DNA of 44,246 bases. It comes from a virus (Duplodnaviria; Caudoviricetes). Where the stretch lies: positions 1 through 44,246 of IMG/VR virus record IMGVR_UViG_3300037470_000544, one strand, 5' to 3'. A program made the translations under genes and the position numbers. Of this stretch, positions 1 through 44,246 are shown piece after piece. The notes beneath the pieces were generated by a model. The model ran no database searches. It was given only the letters and a program-made list of their open reading frames with translations, and was not told the origin of the DNA. The number at the start of each line of letters is the position of its first letter. Position 1 is the first letter of the stretch.

Positions 1-2
1 TG

Positions 3-629
3 CTGCTGGGCCTGGTCGTGGCGCATATCATTGCCCTGCACGAAGTGGGTTCCAACAACCCGGACGGCGTGGAAATCAAGAAAAACAAGGGTCCTGACGG
101 TATTCCATTAGACGGTATTCCTTTCCATCCTTACTACTCGGTGAAGGACATCGTCGGTGTTATCGTGTTCCTGTTCTTCTTCTGTGTCATCGTGTTCTTC
201 ATGCCGGAAGGCGGCGGTTACATGCTGGAGCATGCTAACTTTATTCCCTCCGATCCGTTGAAGACGCCGCAGCACATTGCCCCGGTCTGGTACTTCACTC
301 CGTTCTACGCAATCCTGCGCGCGGTGCCTGAAAAGCTGATGGGTGTTATCGCCATGGGTGGAGCGATTGTTGTGCTGTTCCTGTTACCATGGATTGACCA
401 GTGTAAGGTTAAATCCATTCGCTATCGCTCAGTCATCTACAAAATCAACCTGGCGGCATTTGTTGTTGCCTTCCTGGTTCTCGGCTGGCTGGGTATGGAG
501 CCTGCAACACCTACGCTGACATGGTTGGCACGGATATTCAGTGTGATTTATTTTGGTTTCTTCGTGGTGCTGTATTTCACCTCCAAGAATGAAAAAACCA
601 AGCCAGTTCCTGAGAGGGTTACAAAATGA
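3..629 (+). CDS. petB: Cytochrome b of the bc1 complex, C-terminal part (5' end outside window)
   Basis: ALHEVGSNNP, IPFHPYY and TPQHIAPVWYF motifs; directly upstream of cytochrome c1. Confidence 0.95.
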   Translation: MLGLVVAHIIALHEVGSNNPDGVEIKKNKGPDGIPLDGIPFHPYYSVKDIVGVIVFLFFFCVIVFFMPEGGGYMLEHANFIPSDPLKTPQHIAPVWYFTPFYAILRAVPEKLMGVIAMGGAIVVLFLLPWIDQCKVKSIRYRSVIYKINLAAFVVAFLVLGWLGMEPATPTLTWLARIFSVIYFGFFVVLYFTSKNEKTKPVPERVTK

Positions 630-1381
630 AGAAATTTTTTACTGCATTTTTCCTAGCCTTTCCAGTGTTGGCCATGGCTGCCGGCGGTGGTGCGGATCTG
701 GACCACGCGCCCATCGACCTGAAAGACACCGAGTCGCTGAAACGCGGCGCGGTTTCTTTTGCAAATTACTGCCTGAGCTGTCACAGTGCCGAGTACATGC
801 GTTATAACCGCATTGGTCGCGACCTGGGCATGAGCGATGAAGAAGTCACCGATAAACTGATCGCCACCCGTGATGAAACGGGCGAGAAGGTCAAGGTGGG
901 TTCGTTGATGAAAGTGGCAATGACCGAGGATTATTCCAAACAGGCATTTGGTACCAAGATTCCCGGCCTGACGGTAATTGCCCGCGCCAAGGGTGCCGAT
1001 TACCTGTACACTTACCTACGTACCTTCTACCTGGATGAATCACGTTCTACCGGGGTCAATAACATCGCTTTCCCGGACGTGGGCATGCCCCATGTGTTGT
1101 GGCAACTGCAGGGTTTGCAGAAAGCCAACTTCAGGATCGAGACGGATGCGGACGGTAACGAGCACAAGGTGTTCGAAGCTATGGAAATCGTAGAGCCGGG
1201 CAGCATGAGTGTCGAGGAATATGACGCCTTTGTTGCCGATCTGGTCAACTTCCTGGTGTACATGGGTGAGCCGGTACAGCTGGAGCGCCAGAGCCTGGGC
1301 GTTAAAGTCCTTATATTTCTCTTTATCTTCGCCATTATTGCCTATCTGTTGAAGAAGGAATACTGGAAAGATATACACTAG
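626..1381 (+). CDS. petC: Cytochrome c1
   Basis: Signal peptide, CLSCH heme motif, MPHVL axial Met region, C-terminal TM ending YWKDIH. Confidence 0.95.
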   Translation: MKKFFTAFFLAFPVLAMAAGGGADLDHAPIDLKDTESLKRGAVSFANYCLSCHSAEYMRYNRIGRDLGMSDEEVTDKLIATRDETGEKVKVGSLMKVAMTEDYSKQAFGTKIPGLTVIARAKGADYLYTYLRTFYLDESRSTGVNNIAFPDVGMPHVLWQLQGLQKANFRIETDADGNEHKVFEAMEIVEPGSMSVEEYDAFVADLVNFLVYMGEPVQLERQSLGVKVLIFLFIFAIIAYLLKKEYWKDIH

Positions 1382-1456
1382 GATTCGCTCACAGGATATC
1401 CTGCGCACAGGGAGGTGCGTCTTTGTTTTTAAATTCCACTTAGAGGCAAGTAAATC

Positions 1457-2089
1457 ATGGCGTCAAACGCCCTCGCCAATCGTAGATCGGTAATGAATCT
1501 GTTTTCGGCACCCGAATGTCCCTATTGCCACCGGACACGTATCGTGCTGGCCGAAAAAGATATTACTTTTGAGACCATCGATGTTGATGTGAACAAGCTG
1601 CCGGAAGATCTGTCCGAGCTGAATCCATACAACACCGTTCCAACACTGGTTGACCGTGATCTGGTGCTTTATGACTCTCGAGTGATCGTTGAATACCTGG
1701 ATGAGCGTTTTCCTCATCCGCCGCTAATGCCGGTAGACCCGGTTTCACGGGCCAAGACCCGGTTGGCGTTGCATCGTGTGGAAACCGACTGGTTCCCCTA
1801 CATGCACGATATTCTGCATCGCGGTGAAAAAACAGCCGCCAAATCGCGCAAGATCCTGCGTGAAAGCATTACCGCATCGGCGGAAATTTTCACTGTCATG
1901 CCGTTTTTCCTGAGTCAGGAATTCAGCCTGGTGGACGCCACCATCGCGCCGGTGCTATGGCGCCTGCCGATTCTGGGCATCGATCTCCCCAAGGAGGCCA
2001 AACCGGTACTGGAATACGCTGAGCGTATTTTCAGTCGGCCTACTTTCCAGGAAGCCCTGTCCGAGGTGGAACGGGAAATGCGTCTCTAA
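1457..2089 (+). CDS. sspA: Stringent starvation protein A (GST fold)
   Basis: NPYNTVPTLVDRDLVLYDSRVIVEYLDERFPHPPLMPVDPV; petC-sspA-sspB synteny. Confidence 0.95.
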   Translation: MASNALANRRSVMNLFSAPECPYCHRTRIVLAEKDITFETIDVDVNKLPEDLSELNPYNTVPTLVDRDLVLYDSRVIVEYLDERFPHPPLMPVDPVSRAKTRLALHRVETDWFPYMHDILHRGEKTAAKSRKILRESITASAEIFTVMPFFLSQEFSLVDATIAPVLWRLPILGIDLPKEAKPVLEYAERIFSRPTFQEALSEVEREMRL

Positions 2090-2158
2090 TCATAAGCCGG
2101 ACCCGGGCTGCGACCCGGGTCACTGGTTTGATTTGCCCATTTATGATGAAATACCAGG

Positions 2159-2542
2159 ATGACATCAAGTCGCCCATACCTCATTAGAGCACTGTATCAA
2201 TGGATAGTTGATAATGGTGTTACCCCCTACATCCTGGTGGATGCCGCGGCTGATGGCGTTGCCGTGCCTTCGCAATATATCCAGGACAATAAAATCGTGC
2301 TCAATATCGCCCCGATGGCGGTACGCAGCCTGACCCTGGGTGACGGGGAAATCACCTTCAATGCTCGCTTCAGCGGCAAGTCCACCGACATTTATGTACC
2401 CACCGAGGCGGTGCTGGCGATCTATGCGCGGGAAAACGGCCAGGGCATGATGTTCACCGACGAGCCACACAGCCCTGAGCCGCCGGATGGGGATGATCCG
2501 GACGATTCGCCGGACAAGCCCAAATTGCGGGTGGTGAAGTAG
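2159..2542 (+). CDS. sspB: ClpXP adaptor SspB
   Basis: RPYLIRALYQWIVDN N-terminus, C-terminal ClpX-binding LRVVK. Confidence 0.95.
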   Translation: MTSSRPYLIRALYQWIVDNGVTPYILVDAAADGVAVPSQYIQDNKIVLNIAPMAVRSLTLGDGEITFNARFSGKSTDIYVPTEAVLAIYARENGQGMMFTDEPHSPEPPDGDDPDDSPDKPKLRVVK

Positions 2543-2759
2543 CAATACGGCTCACACCCCACCCCACTGCAGGAATAGCGGCGTTAGAACGACTCATGAG
2601 CCAGGGTAGCAGGGTGTTATACGTATATTTATGAGGCTCCGGTAAACCCGGCAGGAATTTATCTGCTTGCTTTCCAGCTTCATTTTATAACCGTTCAGGC
2701 GCAAAAAAATGCAGGAAACCCTGATAATTGATCGCCTCATCCATGGCCAGGAGCGATCG

Positions 2760-3806
2760 CTAGTCGGATGGTTTTTTACGTTGACGTTTTTCCGCCAGCA
2801 CAGAGCGGTAGAAACGACCCAGGTTGCGGTCCCGCGCTCTTTTCTCCGCCAGCGTTGACTTGTTCAGTGCCTGTTCCCGCATCAGCTTCAGATAACTGGA
2901 CAGGCGTCGCGGTTCCAGTGTTCCCGCATCGATGGCGGCGCGTACCGCGCAACCCGGTTCATCCTCATGTCGACAGTCGGAAAACCTGCATTGCATAGCC
3001 AGTTCGCTGATTTCAGAAAATGTCTGTTCGATGCCATGCTCGCAGTCGGCCAGTTGCAATTCCCTCATGCCCGGGGTGTCCAGTAACAGACCACCGGCCG
3101 GTAGCAGGTGAAGAAAGCGTCCGGTGGTCGTATGCCGTCCTTTTGCATCGTCTTCCCGTATAGGCTGGGTGTGCTGAAGTGTCGAGCCCGCGAGAGTATT
3201 GATTAAGGTGGATTTGCCGACCCCGGAGGAGCCGAGCAGGGCGACAGTGTTGCCAGTGCCGCACCAGGGTTTAAGCTGGCTTACGCTTTCCGGACTAAGG
3301 CCGTTAACACTTACCACAGCTAACAATGGATCGATGGCCTGCACCTGTCGGCAAAATTCATCAGGATTATCACAGCAATCAAGCTTGCTCAGCACCACCA
3401 CCGGTACGACCCCGGCTTCCCTGGCCATGGCCAGGTAACGTTCAATGCGATTGAGATTAAAGTCCTGGTTCAGCGAGCTGACGATGAACACCGTGTCGAT
3501 ATTGGCGGCGATCAGCTGGGTGGAAACCTTACTACCCGCCGCTTTACGGGAAAACAGCGAAAGTCGCTCCAGGGCTCGATGGAAATGCCCGGCCTGATCC
3601 AGCAAAACCCAGTCACCAACCGTCATTGCAGGCATGGCGGGTGTCAGCTGCAAGCTGTGCGTACCGGATGTCGACATAAGCGTTATTGATGAACGCTGGT
3701 GTGTGATCACCCTGGCGATGGTGAACTGCTGCCATTCATCGAGCGTGAGCTGTGATTGAAAGAAGGGCTGCCAGCCAAGTTGTGGAAGAGAATATAAATG
3801 TGTCAT
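2760..3806 (-). CDS. rsgA: Ribosome small subunit-dependent GTPase (RsgA/YjeQ family); probable start 3806 (MTHLYSL)
   Basis: Circularly permuted GTPase motifs SKLD, GSSGVGKS, GRHTT, DTPG; C-terminal CxFxDCxHxxEPGC zinc finger. Confidence 0.88.
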   Translation of the reverse strand: MTHLYSLPQLGWQPFFQSQLTLDEWQQFTIARVITHQRSSITLMSTSGTHSLQLTPAMPAMTVGDWVLLDQAGHFHRALERLSLFSRKAAGSKVSTQLIAANIDTVFIVSSLNQDFNLNRIERYLAMAREAGVVPVVVLSKLDCCDNPDEFCRQVQAIDPLLAVVSVNGLSPESVSQLKPWCGTGNTVALLGSSGVGKSTLINTLAGSTLQHTQPIREDDAKGRHTTTGRFLHLLPAGGLLLDTPGMRELQLADCEHGIEQTFSEISELAMQCRFSDCRHEDEPGCAVRAAIDAGTLEPRRLSSYLKLMREQALNKSTLAEKRARDRNLGRFYRSVLAEKRQRKKPSD

Positions 3807-3901
3807 AGGAACCCTGGGCGCTATGCTGGCGCCAGTAGATTGACTTGTCAGGGCATGGACGTGCCCCGGTTCAGGCACCGGGCAGTTAGTTTATATCAGC
3901 A

Positions 3902-4038: not shown

Positions 4039-4130
4039 CTTTTCTTCGTTTCCGGGTTGGTCTTTGTGGTTTTCGTTATTTCTATTTGCAGGCATCGGGT
4101 TTCACCCGCTGGGGAGTTACTTTTATGTCT
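4039..4130 (+). repeat. Host intergenic repeat, partial copy A
   Basis: TTTGTGGTTTTCG...TCTATTTGCAGGCATCGGGTTTCACC...GAGTTACTTT shared with copy B and with the reverse complement of 44130-44220. Confidence 0.8.
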
Positions 4131-4163
4131 TCCGCAACAAACGGATAATTTGGCTGAGTTTCC

Positions 4164-4193
4164 GTAGGTTGGGGTGACGAAGGAACCCCAACG
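4164..4193 (+). repeat. REP-like palindrome
   Basis: GTAG tetranucleotide followed by GTTGGGGT-gacgaagga-ACCCCAAC hairpin. Confidence 0.55.
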
Positions 4194-4293
4194 CTTTTCG
4201 GTTTTGGCAGGGTGTTTGTGGAGCTTTTTCTTCTTTTCTGGAGTGTTATTTGTGGTTTTCGTGTTTTCTATTTGCAGGCATCGGGTTTCACCT

Positions 4294-4345
4294 CGGCAAC
4301 TGCTCCTGCGTTGCTCTACCTACCTACCTACATCCATGTAGGCGT
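4294..4345 (+). repeat. 52-bp mini-element copy 1
   Basis: CGGCAACTGCTCCTGCGTTGCTCTACCTACCTACCTACATCCATGTAGGCGT; identical at 4516-4567; absent from the equivalent position in copy A and the distal copy. Confidence 0.85.
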
Positions 4346-4515
4346 GCTGGCGAGTCACTTTTTTTCTGTAGCAAAAAAAAGTAACCAAAAAACGCCACAC
4401 CTTTAGTCGATTGCCCTGCGGGTTCCCTCCCATTGTTAACGCAGTTTGGTTTGTGGGTTTTCCTGTAACTTGATTTTTATAGTTTCGCTGCCGGGTCGTT
4501 TTGACTCGCATCCAT

Positions 4516-4567
4516 CGGCAACTGCTCCTGCGTTGCTCTACCTACCTACCTACATCCATGTAGGCGT
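4516..4567 (+). repeat. 52-bp mini-element copy 2
   Basis: Identical to 4294-4345. Confidence 0.85.
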
Positions 4568-4894
4568 GCTCGACAAAACTAAAACCGCCTTCCCTGGCGA
4601 ATTTACCCTACGGTATTCACAATGCTCAGCAATCGACAGAGGGGACCAACAGCAGCGCCAACACACAAACACTTAATAGTGCTGCCACCCCGAAACGAAA
4701 GGAAAAAGCCCTCCCTCTCCCTTCCAGGGAGTACCCGGTGAAGCGGGGCAGGCCCAGGGCTGGGGTGAGGGTGTCAACAAGCGCGCGAAGCGCACCAACT
4801 TTCTTGTGCCTGTCTCCCCCTTTTACAGTTTGCCGAGCATTGTGAATGCAGGAGGGTAAAACCGCCATGGAAGGCGGTTTTAGTTTTGTCGAGC

Positions 4895-4942
4895 ACGCCT
4901 ACATGGATGTAGGTAGGTAGAGCAACGCAGGAGCAGTTGCCG
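4895..4942 (-). repeat. 48-bp mini-element copy 3 (one CTAC unit fewer)
   Basis: Reverse complement of the 52-bp element lacking one CTAC. Confidence 0.85.
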
Positions 4943-5050
4943 ATGGATGCGAGTCAAAACGACCCGGCAGCGGAACTACAGAAGTAACCGTAGGTTACGA
5001 ACTCTCAGAATGCGGGTTAACAATGCTCGGGAACCCGGAGGGCAAACTGT

Positions 5051-5055: not shown

Positions 5056-5140
5056 TGTAGCGCGACGTTTGAATTGAGACACTTACACGTTAGAAATGCG
5101 ACACGATTAAATGCCTATTTGACACAAGAAATGAGATACA
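5056..5140 (+). promoter_or_regulatory. Prophage end (attR-like) with three putative transposase-binding sites
   Basis: GAATTGAGACA 5071-5081, GAAATGCGACA 5093-5103 (22-bp spacing), GAAATGAGATA 5128-5138. Confidence 0.75.
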
Positions 5141-17409: not shown

Positions 17410-17843
17410 GGCATCACCTCGCTCACAAAGTCGCGGACGATGGCATTGATCTCATCTTCGTCGTCCGCATTGAGTCCGATGAATGGGCGGGCAATCATGG
17501 TCACCGATTTGTTACGACCCGTCTTACCGCCGAACTGATGGATGGCGGCATAAATCATATTGGAGCCATGCTCAACGCCGGTGCTGCTGGCGATGTGGGT
17601 GATCGAGTCACGCAGATGGCCGAAATCGATCAGCGTTTTTCCTGCCTCGTTCTTCGCGCGCTCACTTTCTTCCCACTTGATACCATCGGGTCCGGCACCG
17701 TCTTCAAATCGCTGCAGCACGGCTGAATCCAGGTAAGCACCGATTTCCTCGAACATCTCAGTGGCGTTGAAATCATCCATGCGCTTCAGTGCTCGCAGGA
17801 TCTCCCGGTCGTCAATTTTGTAATCGAGTCGCACGCCGCTCAT
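17406..17843 (-). CDS. Phage virion morphogenesis protein (Mu gpG-like)
   Basis: RFEDG..PDG..W, LIDFGHLRDSI, GSNMIYAAIHQFGG, ARPFIGL. Confidence 0.9.
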   Translation of the reverse strand: MSGVRLDYKIDDREILRALKRMDDFNATEMFEEIGAYLDSAVLQRFEDGAGPDGIKWEESERAKNEAGKTLIDFGHLRDSITHIASSTGVEHGSNMIYAAIHQFGGKTGRNKSVTMIARPFIGLNADDEDEINAIVRDFVSEVMP

Positions 17844-20293
17844 CAATAATCATCCCAGCTGTATTTGCTGGTGCCGGTCCGGGAAACCATACGACCCTGT
17901 GGCGTGGCCACGGCGGTGTCCTGCACCCCAAGGCTGGCCTTGTTCATGGATATATCACGTAACCAGCGCATCGCTTCGTTGTAGCGCTTGTCGACTTCAT
18001 CGGTGGTCCGGTCATCCATTAGTTTGTAACGCACAATGTGATTGCAATACTCTGGTAAGGCACTCTCCCCGATTAGCGTGATGCTGAGGGGCAAGGTGTA
18101 TCGCGGGCTGATATACGAGTCGATGAGCCGCTCGGCGGAGGCGACCGCAGAAATCAGGCGATCGATCGCCGCGTTTGCGTCGGCAATGTCCTGCAATGAC
18201 CAGGCGGATAGATCATCGCGATTCAAGGCTGCAGACAAAAGATCACCGGTGATGTTGGCGTTTTCTGGCGCAGCCAGCAAAGCCATTTCGGTTTTACCGA
18301 AGGCGTTGAAAAGCTTAGCGGTCGTTGTGTACTTGAAGGTAAAGGGCTGCAATACATTGACGGAGGCCGACACCGTTGCGTCCTGCGCCTGAACGTTGCC
18401 GCCAACGGTCAGGTCGGCAGCGGCGGCTACTACAGCGACCGAGACCGGGTCGTTGACAGTGGTACCGGAAACGGTGGCGTCCTGTGCTTGCAGACTGCCG
18501 CCGACTGTAATGGGTGCGGCGACGGGAAACGCACCAAAGTCAGCACCCGCCAGGCCAGTGCCTGCGAAGTCGGGATTGCTAGAGGTGTAGCCGCCCTGGA
18601 TGTAGGCCCAATACTCTGTACTGCTCACGCCTGCGACCGGAGCGATTTCAGCGCCCGCATTATCCAGACCAACGCTAGCCAGCATGAGACGCCCAAGATC
18701 CGAAAGCGTTGCAGCGAAGCCGGCAAATGTCGCGCACCAGGTGAGAGCGTGCCGCGTCGGGTCGGCGAACTGGGCGTCGGTGTACAGGCGATCGTTGGCG
18801 CCGTAGTTGTCGATATGATCGGCGATGCCAGCGGCTACATAACCTGCACCGCCGAGGACCGGGTGCACCTCGTTGCCGGCATCCATATCGGCAACGCGAT
18901 AGGCGATGTAGTCGACGTTGTGCGCTGTCTGATTGACAGCAGCACCCCCGTAGTCATTTACCAGGTTGGGCTTGTAGGGCTGGCTGATAATCACATTATT
19001 GATATTGCCCAGCTCGGTCGCCGAAGAGTTGCCTGGCGACTCACCCATGATAATGCCGACGGCCGCATGTATGGTCCAACCATTGATGTTGACAGAACCG
19101 TTGATGTTCAGCGATGTATTGACGCCACCCGCGCCATGAATAGTGACCAGGTTGTTAATGGTCACCGGCATGTTGCAGATCGGTTGATCACCCACTTCCG
19201 ACAGTGACACCAGGCCCATCGCATCGATAACCATGTTATTAACGGTGTAGTTCGCCGAATCACCGCTGAACGTCGGTGCATGTACGCCCGCCGGCGCACC
19301 CTGGATGATCGCAATGTTGTCGATGTTCGGCACGCCCGAATTCGGTGTTGCGTTGGCGCCGGCGCCGATGGAACAATCATTTGTGGTCGATGTCCCGATC
19401 ACCATCATATTCTGGGCCGCGATCAAATCGTTACTGCCGAGGGTGTCATCGAAGTTGACTGTGCGTAGATTAGTTACATCAATAGGGCCGCCTACGTGGG
19501 TAAGGTCGAGCGTCATGTCGTTAGCGGCGTCGGCATCGTAAAAAAGCGCATTCGTCAGGCGCGGTACGGTAGTTGGGTTGCTGTGACCTTCGCGGATATT
19601 AAACGGCAGCTGATCCCGATTGGCGGTGTAGCCGGTGCCATTAAAAAAGCCGATGAAGATATCGTCCCAGTCAAATACTGCAGTCTGGTTAAGTCCCAGG
19701 CGTATATCGAGCTGGCCGCAATTGATGATTCGACCACCACCCTGATACGTCCAGCTGTCATTCGAGTTGAGGAAGAAAGCCGCCAGCGCAGGATTGGTTA
19801 CCCCATTGCCGTGACCCTCGGTGCGGCCACCGTTTGTCCAGTTTATATTCAATGTTGCCAGAGATGTGCTGGGATTGGCGAATAATATGCTGTGGGTAGA
19901 ACCCCGAACATTGCGGGATATTCTATCGCCGCCGAATGAATTCCATGTATTGGTGTGACCGAATGTTTGTGAGAAATTCGCTACGGCACATCCACTATTG
20001 GCGAATGTTGGCGAATTGATAATATCGTGCGCACCCTGATGCAGGGTCCCGTCTTCGAAATAGAACACCTCGCTTACTGCGTGCCCCTCTACCTGCCCGG
20101 TTAACGTAACTGATCCACCGTTTATATGTCCGGCGAAGTTCGTCACGTCATCGCCGAAAATACCGGCACATGACGTCAGGTTGAAGCCGTTAGTCTCGAA
20201 CGTGTCGCCGCCGGCCGGGTTCGGGCCTATGCCGCCCTGCCAATGGGCACCGTCTGTGATAGGGCCGTCAGCAATTAAGATACGATGCGCCAT
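17843..20293 (-). CDS. 816-aa fusion: ~650-aa Asn/Gly/Thr-rich domain plus C-terminal Mu gp36-like (DUF1320) head-tail adaptor
   Basis: Last ~160 aa have IDSYISPRYTLPL, CNHIVRYKL, RYNEAMRWLRDI...SLG; single open frame. Confidence 0.8.
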   Translation of the reverse strand: MAHRILIADGPITDGAHWQGGIGPNPAGGDTFETNGFNLTSCAGIFGDDVTNFAGHINGGSVTLTGQVEGHAVSEVFYFEDGTLHQGAHDIINSPTFANSGCAVANFSQTFGHTNTWNSFGGDRISRNVRGSTHSILFANPSTSLATLNINWTNGGRTEGHGNGVTNPALAAFFLNSNDSWTYQGGGRIINCGQLDIRLGLNQTAVFDWDDIFIGFFNGTGYTANRDQLPFNIREGHSNPTTVPRLTNALFYDADAANDMTLDLTHVGGPIDVTNLRTVNFDDTLGSNDLIAAQNMMVIGTSTTNDCSIGAGANATPNSGVPNIDNIAIIQGAPAGVHAPTFSGDSANYTVNNMVIDAMGLVSLSEVGDQPICNMPVTINNLVTIHGAGGVNTSLNINGSVNINGWTIHAAVGIIMGESPGNSSATELGNINNVIISQPYKPNLVNDYGGAAVNQTAHNVDYIAYRVADMDAGNEVHPVLGGAGYVAAGIADHIDNYGANDRLYTDAQFADPTRHALTWCATFAGFAATLSDLGRLMLASVGLDNAGAEIAPVAGVSSTEYWAYIQGGYTSSNPDFAGTGLAGADFGAFPVAAPITVGGSLQAQDATVSGTTVNDPVSVAVVAAAADLTVGGNVQAQDATVSASVNVLQPFTFKYTTTAKLFNAFGKTEMALLAAPENANITGDLLSAALNRDDLSAWSLQDIADANAAIDRLISAVASAERLIDSYISPRYTLPLSITLIGESALPEYCNHIVRYKLMDDRTTDEVDKRYNEAMRWLRDISMNKASLGVQDTAVATPQGRMVSRTGTSKYSWDDY

Positions 20294-24035: not shown

Positions 24036-24094
24036 GGATGAGAGTGTGATCCATGCGGGCATAAAAAAAGAGGGGAGACATGTGTCTCCCCTCT
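24035..24094 (-). promoter_or_regulatory. Putative late promoter of head/tail arm (P_I-like): 26-bp palindrome, T-tract, CACACT -10
   Basis: AGAGGGGAGACA-CA-TGTCTCCCCTCT at 24069-24094 (minus strand), identical to 35558-35583, 34 bp from ATG. Confidence 0.72.
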
Positions 24095-35557: not shown

Positions 35558-35617
35558 AGAGGGGAGACACATGTCTCCCCTCTTTTTTTTGCCTGCTCTC
35601 ATCCATGCTATTTCCCA
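35558..35617 (+). promoter_or_regulatory. Putative late promoter of lysis/packaging arm (P_lys-like), may double as terminator of early operon
   Basis: 26-bp palindrome 35558-35583, T-tract, CATGCT -10, ATG at 35617; same geometry as 24035-24094. Confidence 0.72.
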
Positions 35618-42178: not shown

Positions 42179-42460
42179 ATGCGAATTCTACATCTGACAC
42201 TGAAAAAGAAATGGTTCGACATGATCGCCAGTGGCGAGAAGCGCGAAGAGTACCGCGAGATAAAACCGTATTGGACTCGCAGGATAGCTGAGCCTGGTAC
42301 TGACTACGACGCAGTGAAGTTCCGCAATGGATATCGGCCAGACTCGCCCACAGTGACGGTCGAGCTGGAGGGGGTGTTTTCCGGCATGGGTCGCCCGGAA
42401 TGGGGAGCGCCAAACCAGCGCGTGTACATTCTGCGCCTCGGCGATATTTTAGGCGCATAA
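42179..42460 (+). CDS. ASCH-domain protein
   Basis: LHLTLKKKWFDMIASGEKREEYR (GxKxxExR), FRNGY. Confidence 0.85.
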   Translation: MRILHLTLKKKWFDMIASGEKREEYREIKPYWTRRIAEPGTDYDAVKFRNGYRPDSPTVTVELEGVFSGMGRPEWGAPNQRVYILRLGDILGA

Positions 42461-42493: not shown

Positions 42494-43738
42494 ATGGCTG
42501 ATATCGATATAGGCTCTGTCCCCTTTACTGAGGCGATCGATTACTTCAAGGGCAAACTGAACCTGCCGTCGGCATACTGGAACGAACTCTCAGCAGAAGT
42601 TCATGCCAAGGCGTTCACCGTGGCCGGAGCCACCAAGCTGTCGCTGGTGGATGACCTGAGGGTGGCCACAGAAGATGCTGTCCGCAATGGCATATCCATC
42701 GGCGAGTTTCGCAAGCAGTTCGACGACATCGCCTCCCGCCACGGCTGGGATTACAAGGGCAATCGCAGCTGGCGCACGCGAGTCATCTACGACACCAACC
42801 TGCGCACCGCCCACATGGCAGGTCGCTGGAAACAGCTCCAACGCACCAAGGCCCGCCGACCCTATATGCAGTACCTCACCGCCGGTGACCAACGTGTTCG
42901 CCCGGAACACCAGGCCTGGAACAAGCTAGTGCTGCCCATCGATGATGTTTTCTGGATTACCCACTACCCACCGAACGGCTGGGGCTGCCGGTGCACAGTG
43001 CGCACCTTGTCTTTACGGCAGATCAGGCGAGAGAAGCTGGATATAGACCAGGCGCCGGCCATCAAGCGAACCGATCGGGTCAATACCCGCACCGGCGAAG
43101 TGTTCAAACAGGTGCCGGAGGGCATCGACCCAGGATGGGATTACAATGTCGGCAAGGCCTGGCAGGGTCCGGATACGGCCCTGGGTGAACACATCATGCG
43201 CATGCCCGATGGACTCCGAACCCAGGCGCTGGCCGATGCCCAAAATCTGGTGCCGCACCTGGCCAGGGAATTCAGCCCCTGGGCAAACCGGCTCATCAAG
43301 CGCAAGCGCCCCCTGGGGGAAATTAAAACCATTGGCTATATTGGCCCCGAGCTGGTTTCACAACTTGCCCAGCGAGAAAAGCTGCCGGTATCGGCCCTGA
43401 TCACCGCCACCGACAAGGAAGTGATGCACATGCTGCGTGAGGCCAAGGATGGCAAACACCTCCCGGTCGACATGATCCGCAACCTGCCCAATGTGATCGG
43501 CTCGCCAAAGGCGGTTCTCTGGGATAAACGCAATCCGGCCCTGCTGTATGTATTCGATCCGCCAGGTGACACCAGGAAGGGCAAAGTGGTCATCCGGGTG
43601 AACTACAAGATAAAGGCGCGGGGCGCCGATTCGCAACGCCACAGCATTACGACCAATAGCCTGAGGACCGGCGGCCTGGTAGACACCAGTAACTTGAAGG
43701 ATGAATCGTTCTATGAAGTGATTGAAGGAAAGCTGTGA
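42494..43738 (+). CDS. Minor head protein MuF (gpF/gp30) with C-terminal extension (possible BECR-fold nuclease)
   Basis: AFTVAG, IYDTNLRTA..AGRW, GDQRVRPEH, YPPNGWGCRC, GIDPGWDYNVG; ~165-aa C-terminal domain. Confidence 0.9.
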   Translation: MADIDIGSVPFTEAIDYFKGKLNLPSAYWNELSAEVHAKAFTVAGATKLSLVDDLRVATEDAVRNGISIGEFRKQFDDIASRHGWDYKGNRSWRTRVIYDTNLRTAHMAGRWKQLQRTKARRPYMQYLTAGDQRVRPEHQAWNKLVLPIDDVFWITHYPPNGWGCRCTVRTLSLRQIRREKLDIDQAPAIKRTDRVNTRTGEVFKQVPEGIDPGWDYNVGKAWQGPDTALGEHIMRMPDGLRTQALADAQNLVPHLAREFSPWANRLIKRKRPLGEIKTIGYIGPELVSQLAQREKLPVSALITATDKEVMHMLREAKDGKHLPVDMIRNLPNVIGSPKAVLWDKRNPALLYVFDPPGDTRKGKVVIRVNYKIKARGADSQRHSITTNSLRTGGLVDTSNLKDESFYEVIEGKL

Positions 43739-43833
43739 TGCGTTGGGGGTACGCCACCTTCCCCGTAGGGGTATCGGCTCTCGCCGCTTACCCAACCGGA
43801 CCGGCGATTTCCCGGTTGCCTGCATCACAGCCC
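43730..43833 (-). ncRNA. Candidate multi-stem antisense RNA overlapping the gpF stop codon
   Basis: 10-12-bp closing stem, three internal hairpins, GAGA tetraloop in minus sense, upstream TTGTTT-16-TATCAT. Confidence 0.5.
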
Positions 43834-43971
43834 TATATCAATGATAATAGAATCGGCCTTTAAAACAACCATTAAACCGATTTAACCGGCTTTTAGTGGT
43901 AATTTAATAGATCATTATTACCAGTATTTCGGCTATTTATTACTGGTAATTTTTGCTTTTTTTATGTTTTT

Positions 43972-44088
43972 TGTCTCATTTCATATGTAAAACAGATTTC
44001 AGGCCTGAATCCCGGAAAGGCCGCCACAATGAGCTTTTCGCCGTTTTTTTTCGTTTTTGGTTTATCTCATTTCTAACATCCCCCCACA
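43972..44088 (-). promoter_or_regulatory. Prophage end (attL-like) with putative transposase-binding sites
   Basis: GAAATGAGATA (minus) at 44063-44073, starting at position 16 from the end as at the other terminus; GAAATGAGACA (minus) at 43972-43982. Confidence 0.75.
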
Positions 44089-44093: not shown

Positions 44094-44225
44094 GGCGGCA
44101 TTTTTTTGGTTACTTTTTTGTTGCTGCAGACAAAAAAGTAACTCGCCAGCGGGCGAAACCCGATGCCTGCAAATAGAAAACACGAAAACCACAAAGAACA
44201 ACTCCAGAAACGAAGAAAAGGCTCC
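44094..44225 (-). repeat. Host repeat copy C, right half
   Basis: Imperfect reverse complement of 4218-4400 without the 52-bp insert. Confidence 0.82.
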
Positions 44226-44246
44226 GACAAAAATCTAAATCAGTAT

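Follow-up and report, generated by a model that had tools for sequence, protein, structure and literature searches.

Directly behind the minor head protein gene of a Mu-like prophage, on the opposite strand, lies a predicted tRNA-shaped RNA. It belongs to a real family of conserved and apparently undescribed elements that, judging from sequence comparisons, is tied to the active form of a nuclease domain carried by the head protein. On balance, we favor the interpretation that this RNA is an antitoxin acting as a decoy, in that it would mimic the substrate of the RNase domain predicted in the virion-borne MuF protein. The prophage was found in a 44,246-nucleotide stretch of caudoviricete DNA (IMG/VR record IMGVR_UViG_3300037470_000544, positions 1 to 44,246; hereafter the window). 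The Mu-like prophage spans positions 5048 to 44079 (approximate ends), was recognized by its transposase, terminase, portal, head, and tail genes (Pfam, PHROG), and has the KS10/TJ1 gene order, in which muF is the last gene. Its right end is probably near 44079, the exact ends being derived from end-repeat motifs at 5093, 5128, 43974, and 44065. The left flank (1-3900) is gammaproteobacterial (petC, sspA, sspB, rsgA), and host-type intergenic repeats in inverted orientation flank the prophage on both sides (4040-4990 and 44100-44246); a similar host-type repeat lies beyond the prophage end at a related locus, L013. Elsewhere in the prophage, an 816-aa protein (17843-20293) has a Mu gp36 domain confined to aa 655-801, and its ~650 N-terminal residues gave no Pfam or NCBIfam match. 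An identical 32-nt palindromic element occurs in inverted orientation at 24063-24094 and 35558-35589, directly ahead of two late operons (protease and endolysin).

The muF product (gpF, 414 aa; 42494-43738, plus strand; Pfam, PHROG 220, TIGR01641) combines a Phage_Mu_F domain at aa 55-169 (Pfam E 6e-19) with a phage BECR (PBECR/MuF-C-like) domain at aa 255-414 (43256-43738, plus strand), the latter assigned from Pfam, Atlas, a structure model, fold matches, and alignments. A sequence-only reading of the window had suggested that this extension is a BECR-type RNase, and both the BECR fold matches and a predicted His/Thr catalytic pattern now support that suggestion. The predicted active site comprises H312 in a helix and T392 in a late strand, with K318, K364, and N388 also conserved. 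In the Pfam comparison, MuF_C scores 20.2 bits on the extension against a cut-off of 27.6 and is similarly weak in 12 of 21 members, while one relative, L273, passes the curated cut-off; the Atlas leads (PBECR2, MuF_C, and PBECR3) are all below 0.9. The domain structure model (pLDDT 96), whose secondary structure agrees with the PBECR clade, matches MuF-C-labelled viral models, and in a fold search of 48,161 chains BECR RNases fill the top: BrnT (Z 5.5, rmsd 3.8, 76 aligned), the colicin D tRNase (Z 5.0, rmsd 3.1, 83 aligned), and CdiA (Z 4.8), all of them middling Z values. Foldseek with the domain model returned nothing from the PDB at E 0.001, a PDB sequence search with the domain profile gave 0 matches, and neither the protein nor 21 aligned domains matched the ToxN, AbiQ, CptN, or TenpN families in Pfam or NCBIfam. 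The domain family is large, with 1,179 clusters at 50% identity. Immediately 5' of muF lies a 93-aa gene (42179-42460) whose Atlas features lead to phage clusters, one of them with 29% ASCH (RNA-binding) members.

These features resemble the PBECR/MuF-C domains of Iyer et al. (2017; PMC5512222) in fold, in the His of an N-terminal helix, in the C-terminal Ser/Thr, in the existence of an Arg variant, and in fusion to MuF. In the passages of that paper devoted to these domains, the His plus Ser/Thr pattern is predicted to be active, the Arg variant is noted, and an inactive copy is described in Mu-type phages; unlike what is found here, no RNA partner or immunity is named in those passages. The window's domain falls short of the Pfam MuF_C cut-off and is distinct from PBECR2 proper.

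The element itself is a predicted 104-nt RNA encoded on the minus strand at 43730-43833, and its sequence agrees with the earlier reading. A closing (acceptor-like) stem encloses a D-like arm (43794-43817), whose loop carries a conserved A-run and a CGCC predicted to pair with the T-like loop; a middle arm in the anticodon position (43767-43793), capped in this copy by a GAGA tetraloop; and a T-like arm (43746-43764) with a stem of 4-5 bp and GGCG in its loop. The 3' arm of the element overlaps the final 9 nt of muF and with them, as had been stated, the stop codon. Upstream, a predicted convergent sigma-70-type promoter (43841-43868, minus strand) consists of a -10 box TATCAT (43846-43841) and a weak -35 box TTGTTT (43868-43863), found where the sequence-only reading had placed them, with a 16-nt spacer and 7 nt to the first G. 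A consensus promoter scan of the window did not list this promoter; its support comes from the -10 box seen across the family and not from the scan. The accompanying claim that no ORF lies between gpF and the prophage end holds only in the sense that the ORFs up to ~44079 are short (40-84 aa). Frames over the element in the immunity-ORF position behind muF are just 40-42 aa, and a 156-aa minus-strand ORF that spans the element has no Pfam match.

The element folds better than shuffled sequences on both strands (z -3.6 on the minus strand and -3.3 on the plus strand), and this similarity means that folding by itself cannot fix the strand. The four-way junction, at -45.2 kcal/mol, lies above the computed minimum-energy fold (-50.3 kcal/mol), which puts the CGCC/GGCG match into a nested helix. 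Searches of the window with Rfam and ARAGORN gave no match for the element. The case from the window's sequence alone is thus modest.

For a wider comparison, muF relatives were gathered from contigs of viral, genome, and metagenome origin (the best 80 loci per scan) together with five phage records. An element of the same appearance stands on the opposite strand, directly behind those muF genes whose products have this C-terminal domain; the phages concerned are proteobacterial and desulfobacterial and include Pseudomonas phage B3 and Curvibacter phage TJ1. In B3 it occupies about 18,960-19,065 of NC_006548, on the minus strand. A first covariance model (R1), built from 26 copies with a structure given by hand, found nothing better than E 0.28 in 100 muF loci without this domain; in five whole genomes it gave six strong matches, all at muF loci with this domain, as well as two weak unlinked matches, and it missed two known divergent copies. 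A further set of 21 new loci was then obtained through the protein alone, the domain being present in 23 of 1,102 genomes (three centre genomes counted), and R1 matched the expected place in eight of them with E <=0.06. A second model (R2) was built from 46 matches. Across 100 sources it recovers the element where expected in 62, with 64 matches in all, of which 46 are the training set and nine are weak (E 0.02-0.4). The window's copy, which is in the training set of R1 and outside that of R2, scores 63.6 and 57.6 bits, respectively.

Other searches bear on novelty and on expression. Rfam on 18 and 20 related loci, with E up to 1, gave nothing relevant, and blastn of the B3 element against 50,697 phage records returned B3 itself alone. 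In phage B3 (L005:2746-2844), an annotated 32-aa hypothetical ORF, ORF34, occupies the position of the RNA element on the complementary strand; we take it as a miscall, as its frame is not seen as a shared feature in the sequences compared. An exact search of viral contigs for both closing-stem arms produced three matches, all inside unrelated ORFs, and these were rejected as chance. In RNA-seq over the B3-type locus, four contig runs were flat and four raw-read runs contained no reads.

In a 46-row alignment, 78.7% of cells pair, and double-sided changes occupy 280 cells, compared with 103 in shuffles and 47-84 in slid controls; because the alignment was fitted to the model, these pair counts are biased toward it. 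All four helices carry double changes. On the minus strand G-U pairs outnumber A-C pairs 123 to 57, a count subject to the same bias. Of 63 distinct copies, 49 have a -10 box no more than 22 nt upstream; windows farther away give 7 and 8, and the opposite strand gives 16. This fixed distance across the family supports the predicted convergent promoter. The proposed pairing of loop 1 with loop 3 also gains support, at one position: in an anchored test it is paired in 41 of 47 copies against 27.4 in shuffles (0/5000), and the next position is not significant (28 of 47 against 23.5; 357 of 5000 shuffles). Automatic anchors in this test were misplaced in some rows. An unanchored test is weak (mean longest match 3.33; swapped partners, 3.14 +/- 0.09), as one kiss sequence is common to the majority of copies, which makes the anchored test the informative one. 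A switch from CGCC/GGCG to GGC/GCC appears in four separate parts of the MuF tree (the L095 group, L108, L248, and L266). An energy-based cloverleaf parser mis-parsed many loci and was excluded from the counts. Together, the family covariation and the R1 and R2 matches behind homologous muF genes corroborate a conserved, structured minus-strand element.

The presence of the RNA was also compared with the state of the domain. Of the 99 domain loci put through the R2 search, 97 were scored; the two dropped gave no profile hit, and near-duplicates were kept. A domain was called intact when it has His in the helix window, or Arg/Lys there plus a later Lys and Ser/Thr, a rule set after the alignment was seen. 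Of the RNA calls, 60 come from R2, seven from the T-loop motif, and five from inspection or blastn. By these definitions, 72 loci have an intact domain with the RNA, 7 an intact domain without it, 18 a decayed domain without it, and none a decayed domain with it. A FastTree tree was built from the N-terminal part of MuF (85 rows; 12 excluded for want of that part). Nine independent pairs fall on its supported branches, 8.5 of which go the same way and 0 the opposite (sign test, p ~0.004); restricting the analysis to loci with at least 300 nt of flank leaves six pairs and p values of 0.03-0.125. A filter-free search of 25 negative loci, the decayed set included, gave nothing above background. 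Because the decayed domains are decayed overall, the link that these alignments suggest is to a working domain and not provably to catalysis. Among the seven exceptions, L028 is a truncated sequence whose near twin, L109, carries the RNA; L268 is intact with another structured element instead; L013 and L099 have a partly decayed domain; and the remaining three (L053, L283, and L018) are loci scored as intact without a detected RNA. The L268 element is the third structured-looking type that we observed: a PBECR3 gene is followed by a -10 box and an element overlapping the gene end (1290-1385).

This co-occurrence over 97 loci and the tree pairs support the antitoxin interpretation and agree with the earlier assignment of the element to the immunity position, behind the domain in place of an ORF. 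The co-loss of RNA and domain fits equally well with the main rival explanation, in which the RNA is a cofactor, guide, or scaffold and a packaged RNP acts on host RNA or counters defense after injection. If the RNA were an antitoxin, it should now and then persist after its toxin has died; it is never found beside a decayed domain (0/18), which is the pattern expected of a part that is useless alone; the seven intact loci without a detected RNA and the middling fold Z-scores also weigh against an antitoxin. The cofactor alternative draws further on the difference in RNA type between nuclease families and on the proposal, in the PBECR passages of Iyer et al. (PMC5512222), of RNA binding or CRISPR-RNA targeting for such domains. 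On the other hand, the variable arm closes into a hairpin (11-57 nt) with no free guide stretch in most copies, a promoter of its own that is convergent and presumably active in the lysogen is easier to reconcile with immunity than with co-assembly at a late stage, and the RNA sits where other MuF toxins have immunity genes, as described in the sections of Jamet et al. on these loci (PMC5576092). We regard a cofactor role as unlikely, while treating it as the alternative to be taken most seriously.

The RNA remains linked to the domain when cargo genes intervene (L109, L191, and L208): it lies behind a 113-aa insert in L109 and is displaced by 108 nt in L191 and by 1,028 nt in L208, with its fold kept. 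It follows the domain onto three proteins without a Pfam MuF match (L272, L279, and L282) and is present in two copies at 2 of 62 loci (L272 and L279); its staying with the domain in all these settings supports the antitoxin interpretation. The paired copies lie behind long proteins without a Pfam MuF match (L272:1167-1467 and L279:2081-2286), and the two in L279 abut and differ in their loop-loop sequences. Cargo genes of no assigned family occur between muF and the RNA or its expected place (L208:2823-3770, L109:2859-3200, L053:2768-3574, and L191), and the slot looks like an accessory-gene hotspot. A cis-antisense or transcription-collision regulator (type I-like) would instead silence leaky muF in the lysogen, the fold serving only to stabilize the transcript. 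The convergent orientation, the overlap with the stop codon in 24 of 61 copies, and the position of the element inside the late operon in the B3-type gene order would all suit such a regulator. However, the overlap is <=10 nt in 23 of those 24 copies and absent in 37 of 61, and the fold persists even where the element has moved as much as 1 kb away; the complementarity to muF mRNA in the window is 9 nt, short of the extended complementarity of type I systems. Silencing in cis also leaves the covarying loop-loop pair and the anticodon-like loops unaccounted for. The option of a plain antisense regulator, raised in the sequence-only reading, is weakened by these observations, and we give it little credence.

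The arm order of the element is that of the tRNA cloverleaf, and all four helices covary, with a middle arm that varies from 11 to 57 nt across the family. A 7-nt anticodon-like loop with the pattern C-Y-W-R-G-Y-W, a pattern derived from the same data, is present in 14 of 61 copies compared with 0.2 in shuffles. A true T-loop motif was found at eight further loci, 9-22 nt from the stop and in antisense only; the canonical T-loop is absent from the window's copy. One of 20 relatives, a T-loop locus, passes the Rfam tRNA threshold (RF00005, 32 bits), and ARAGORN calls a tRNA in 2 of 40. The family thus resembles tRNA in its cloverleaf order, its 5-bp T-like stem, and a D-loop/T-loop contact with a G-C pair, as well as in the true T-loop of one subtype and the anticodon-like loop of some copies. 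It differs from tRNA in its longer closing stem, in a 9-nt T-like loop with a Watson-Crick kiss, in the lack of an anticodon loop in most copies, in having CCA directly after the stem in just 2 of 61, and, for the window's copy, in drawing no Rfam or ARAGORN call. Known tRNA mimics include YrlA/Y RNAs and viral tRNA-like structures. With filters off, R2 detected neither the T-loop subtype nor the L032 type (best E 0.89), and we infer common ancestry of the T-loop subtype and the window's type from nothing more than their position, promoter, and size, together with a single pair of sisters (L041 and L054) in the MuF tree. About 760 nt behind muF in L054, a Mu-like phage, is an Rfam sRNA-Xcc1 match (3540-3642, 61.9 bits).

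The tRNA geometry, the anticodon-like loops, the true T-loops, and the Rfam and ARAGORN calls could also indicate that the RNA is the substrate on which the MuF domain normally acts, or a tRNA decoy with a separate function, and that the domain processes or removes it in a timely manner. One such function would be soaking up host anticodon nucleases or tRNA-sensing defenses. The window's copy and most others lack the anticodon loop, however, and an RNA useful by itself should persist without the domain, which it did not. We consider this explanation quite unlikely. Under the antitoxin interpretation, the tRNA shape would suit a decoy for a colicin D-like or CdiA-like tRNase.

A structural or catalytic role unrelated to toxicity appears the least probable of the explanations considered, and very improbable in itself. 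The packaging RNA of phi29, pRNA, multimerizes through complementary loops. The complementary loops of the present element could likewise pair between molecules, and MuF is a head protein associated with the portal. The element is absent from Mu-type and KS10-type phages, which shows that packaging does not require it. A self-cleaving ribozyme would be in keeping with the enrichment of ribozymes near Mu-like phage genes, reported in the part of that survey dealing with these phages (PMC10085705), but no Rfam ribozyme matches. Neither possibility accounts for the tie to active-site residues.

Of the 72 muF control loci scanned, 55 turned out to end in PBECR2. These MuF-PBECR2 loci carry a different convergent element, in which a hairpin loop pairs with a downstream loop over 5-7 nt. 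For 23 hand-picked copies, own partners score 4.8 and swapped partners 3.2 (0/5000). A descriptor of this element matches 29 of 50 loci; at more distant positions it matches 11 of 50, and for short MuF genes 4 of 38. The -10 box is present in 29 of 50 compared with 4 and 3. Rfam on these loci gave no match. The element lies ~10-95 nt behind the muF stop on the minus strand in L140, L141, L146, L147, L170, L215, and others. Window-type cloverleafs, also on the minus strand, were seen in L066:2804-2899, L159:2828-2919, and L089:2708-2778 (E 0.003-0.28), which represent two LPD13-like MuF ends and one unassigned end and have differing loop-loop sequences; the comparison suggests that LPD13 is a related RNase domain. 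By inspection, four MuF loci with ADP-ribosyltransferase-like or peptidase-like ends have ORF-like sequence behind the stop. Both this contrast and the presence of a different kissing-loop element in the same slot behind PBECR2, a different nuclease family, support the antitoxin interpretation. More broadly, phage BECR RNases may as a class be paired with structured RNAs of their own, of the tRNA-mimic kind for MuF-C-like and LPD13-like domains and of the kissing-hairpin kind for PBECR2, acting as immunity factors or as loaded subunits for injected nucleases; we hold this generalization to be about as probable as its opposite.

Colicin D and the CdiA tRNases target tRNA. We propose that MuF would be packaged and injected with the phage DNA and that its His/Thr BECR domain would cut host RNA, most likely tRNA, in the manner of those enzymes. 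Transcription of the small RNA would start at its convergent promoter, would not depend on late-gene control, and would take place both in the lysogen and shortly after infection. The RNA would fold as an L shape, with its elbow locked by 3-4 bp of loop-loop pairing, and occupy the nuclease. The benefit would be protection of the lysogen and of the cell producing phage, and an end to toxin action in a newly infected cell. The closing stem and elbow are conserved and the anticodon-position arm is not, which makes the former the likely bound surface. Immunity by RNA is the most economical explanation given the immunity-ORF slot and a separate predicted promoter facing the late operon, and it is favored because the RNA type changes with the nuclease family and the RNA goes when the nuclease decays. 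The top fold matches to BECR RNases, the predicted-active His pattern, and the tRNA traits add further support.

Type III toxin-antitoxin systems (ToxIN, AbiQ, CptIN, and TenpIN) have toxins of the ToxN/AbiQ/CptN/TenpN families and an antitoxin that is a tandem repeat array upstream of the toxin gene and co-transcribed with it. The present system shares with them, on prediction, a structured RNA with pseudoknot-type pairing adjoining an RNase gene, occasional tandem copies, and direct inhibition of the protein by RNA. Unlike those systems, it has a BECR-fold domain fused to a virion protein and no ToxN-type toxin, and in place of an upstream co-transcribed array it has a single downstream cloverleaf on the opposite strand with its own promoter. 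From the sequences, the element likely works like a type III antitoxin while departing from that family in layout and toxin family. The MuF polymorphic toxins of Jamet et al. (2017; PMC5576092) offer a second comparison: in the sections describing them, immunity ORFs lie directly behind the toxin genes, and the shared traits are a MuF N terminus with a predicted C-terminal toxin, a partner locus directly behind the gene, and the absence of the partner behind short MuF. The slot here is occupied, by contrast, by a noncoding opposite-strand element and no small immunity ORF. The DUF3800, drum, and skipping-rope motifs, in the relevant entries of Weinberg et al. (2017; PMC5737381), likewise associate unrelated RNAs with one domain in either orientation; the protein domain differs, and those Rfam models gave no match.

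In the full-text literature searched, a scope that left supplementary alignments and most subscription papers outside, an RNA behind MuF or PBECR genes is not described. In the tables of Fremin (2023; PMC10690425) that list MuF, it appears just with candidates upstream of the gene (2/3 rows). The element could be listed unnamed in the supplementary data of Fremin 2023, Weinberg 2017, or a preprint; related works include a BECR classification preprint (10.64898/2026.08.28.747851) and the Minerva preprint (10.64898/2026.09.22.753630).

Since 2017, PBECR domains have been predicted RNases whose target and self-protection are unexplained, and the extensions of Mu-like gpF proteins are likewise largely unexplained; a conserved partner RNA opens both the target and the self-protection to testing in the cultured phage B3. 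If the RNA is an antitoxin, it would add a new toxin fold and a tRNA-mimic RNA to the type III-like systems, and RNA would replace immunity proteins in virion-delivered toxins. The PBECR2 element suggests that more RNA families lie behind related domains. If the class-wide interpretation is true, these phages would carry a polymorphic toxin system with an RNA immunity cassette, in which a series from near-true tRNA genes to elbow-locked mimics would be visible.
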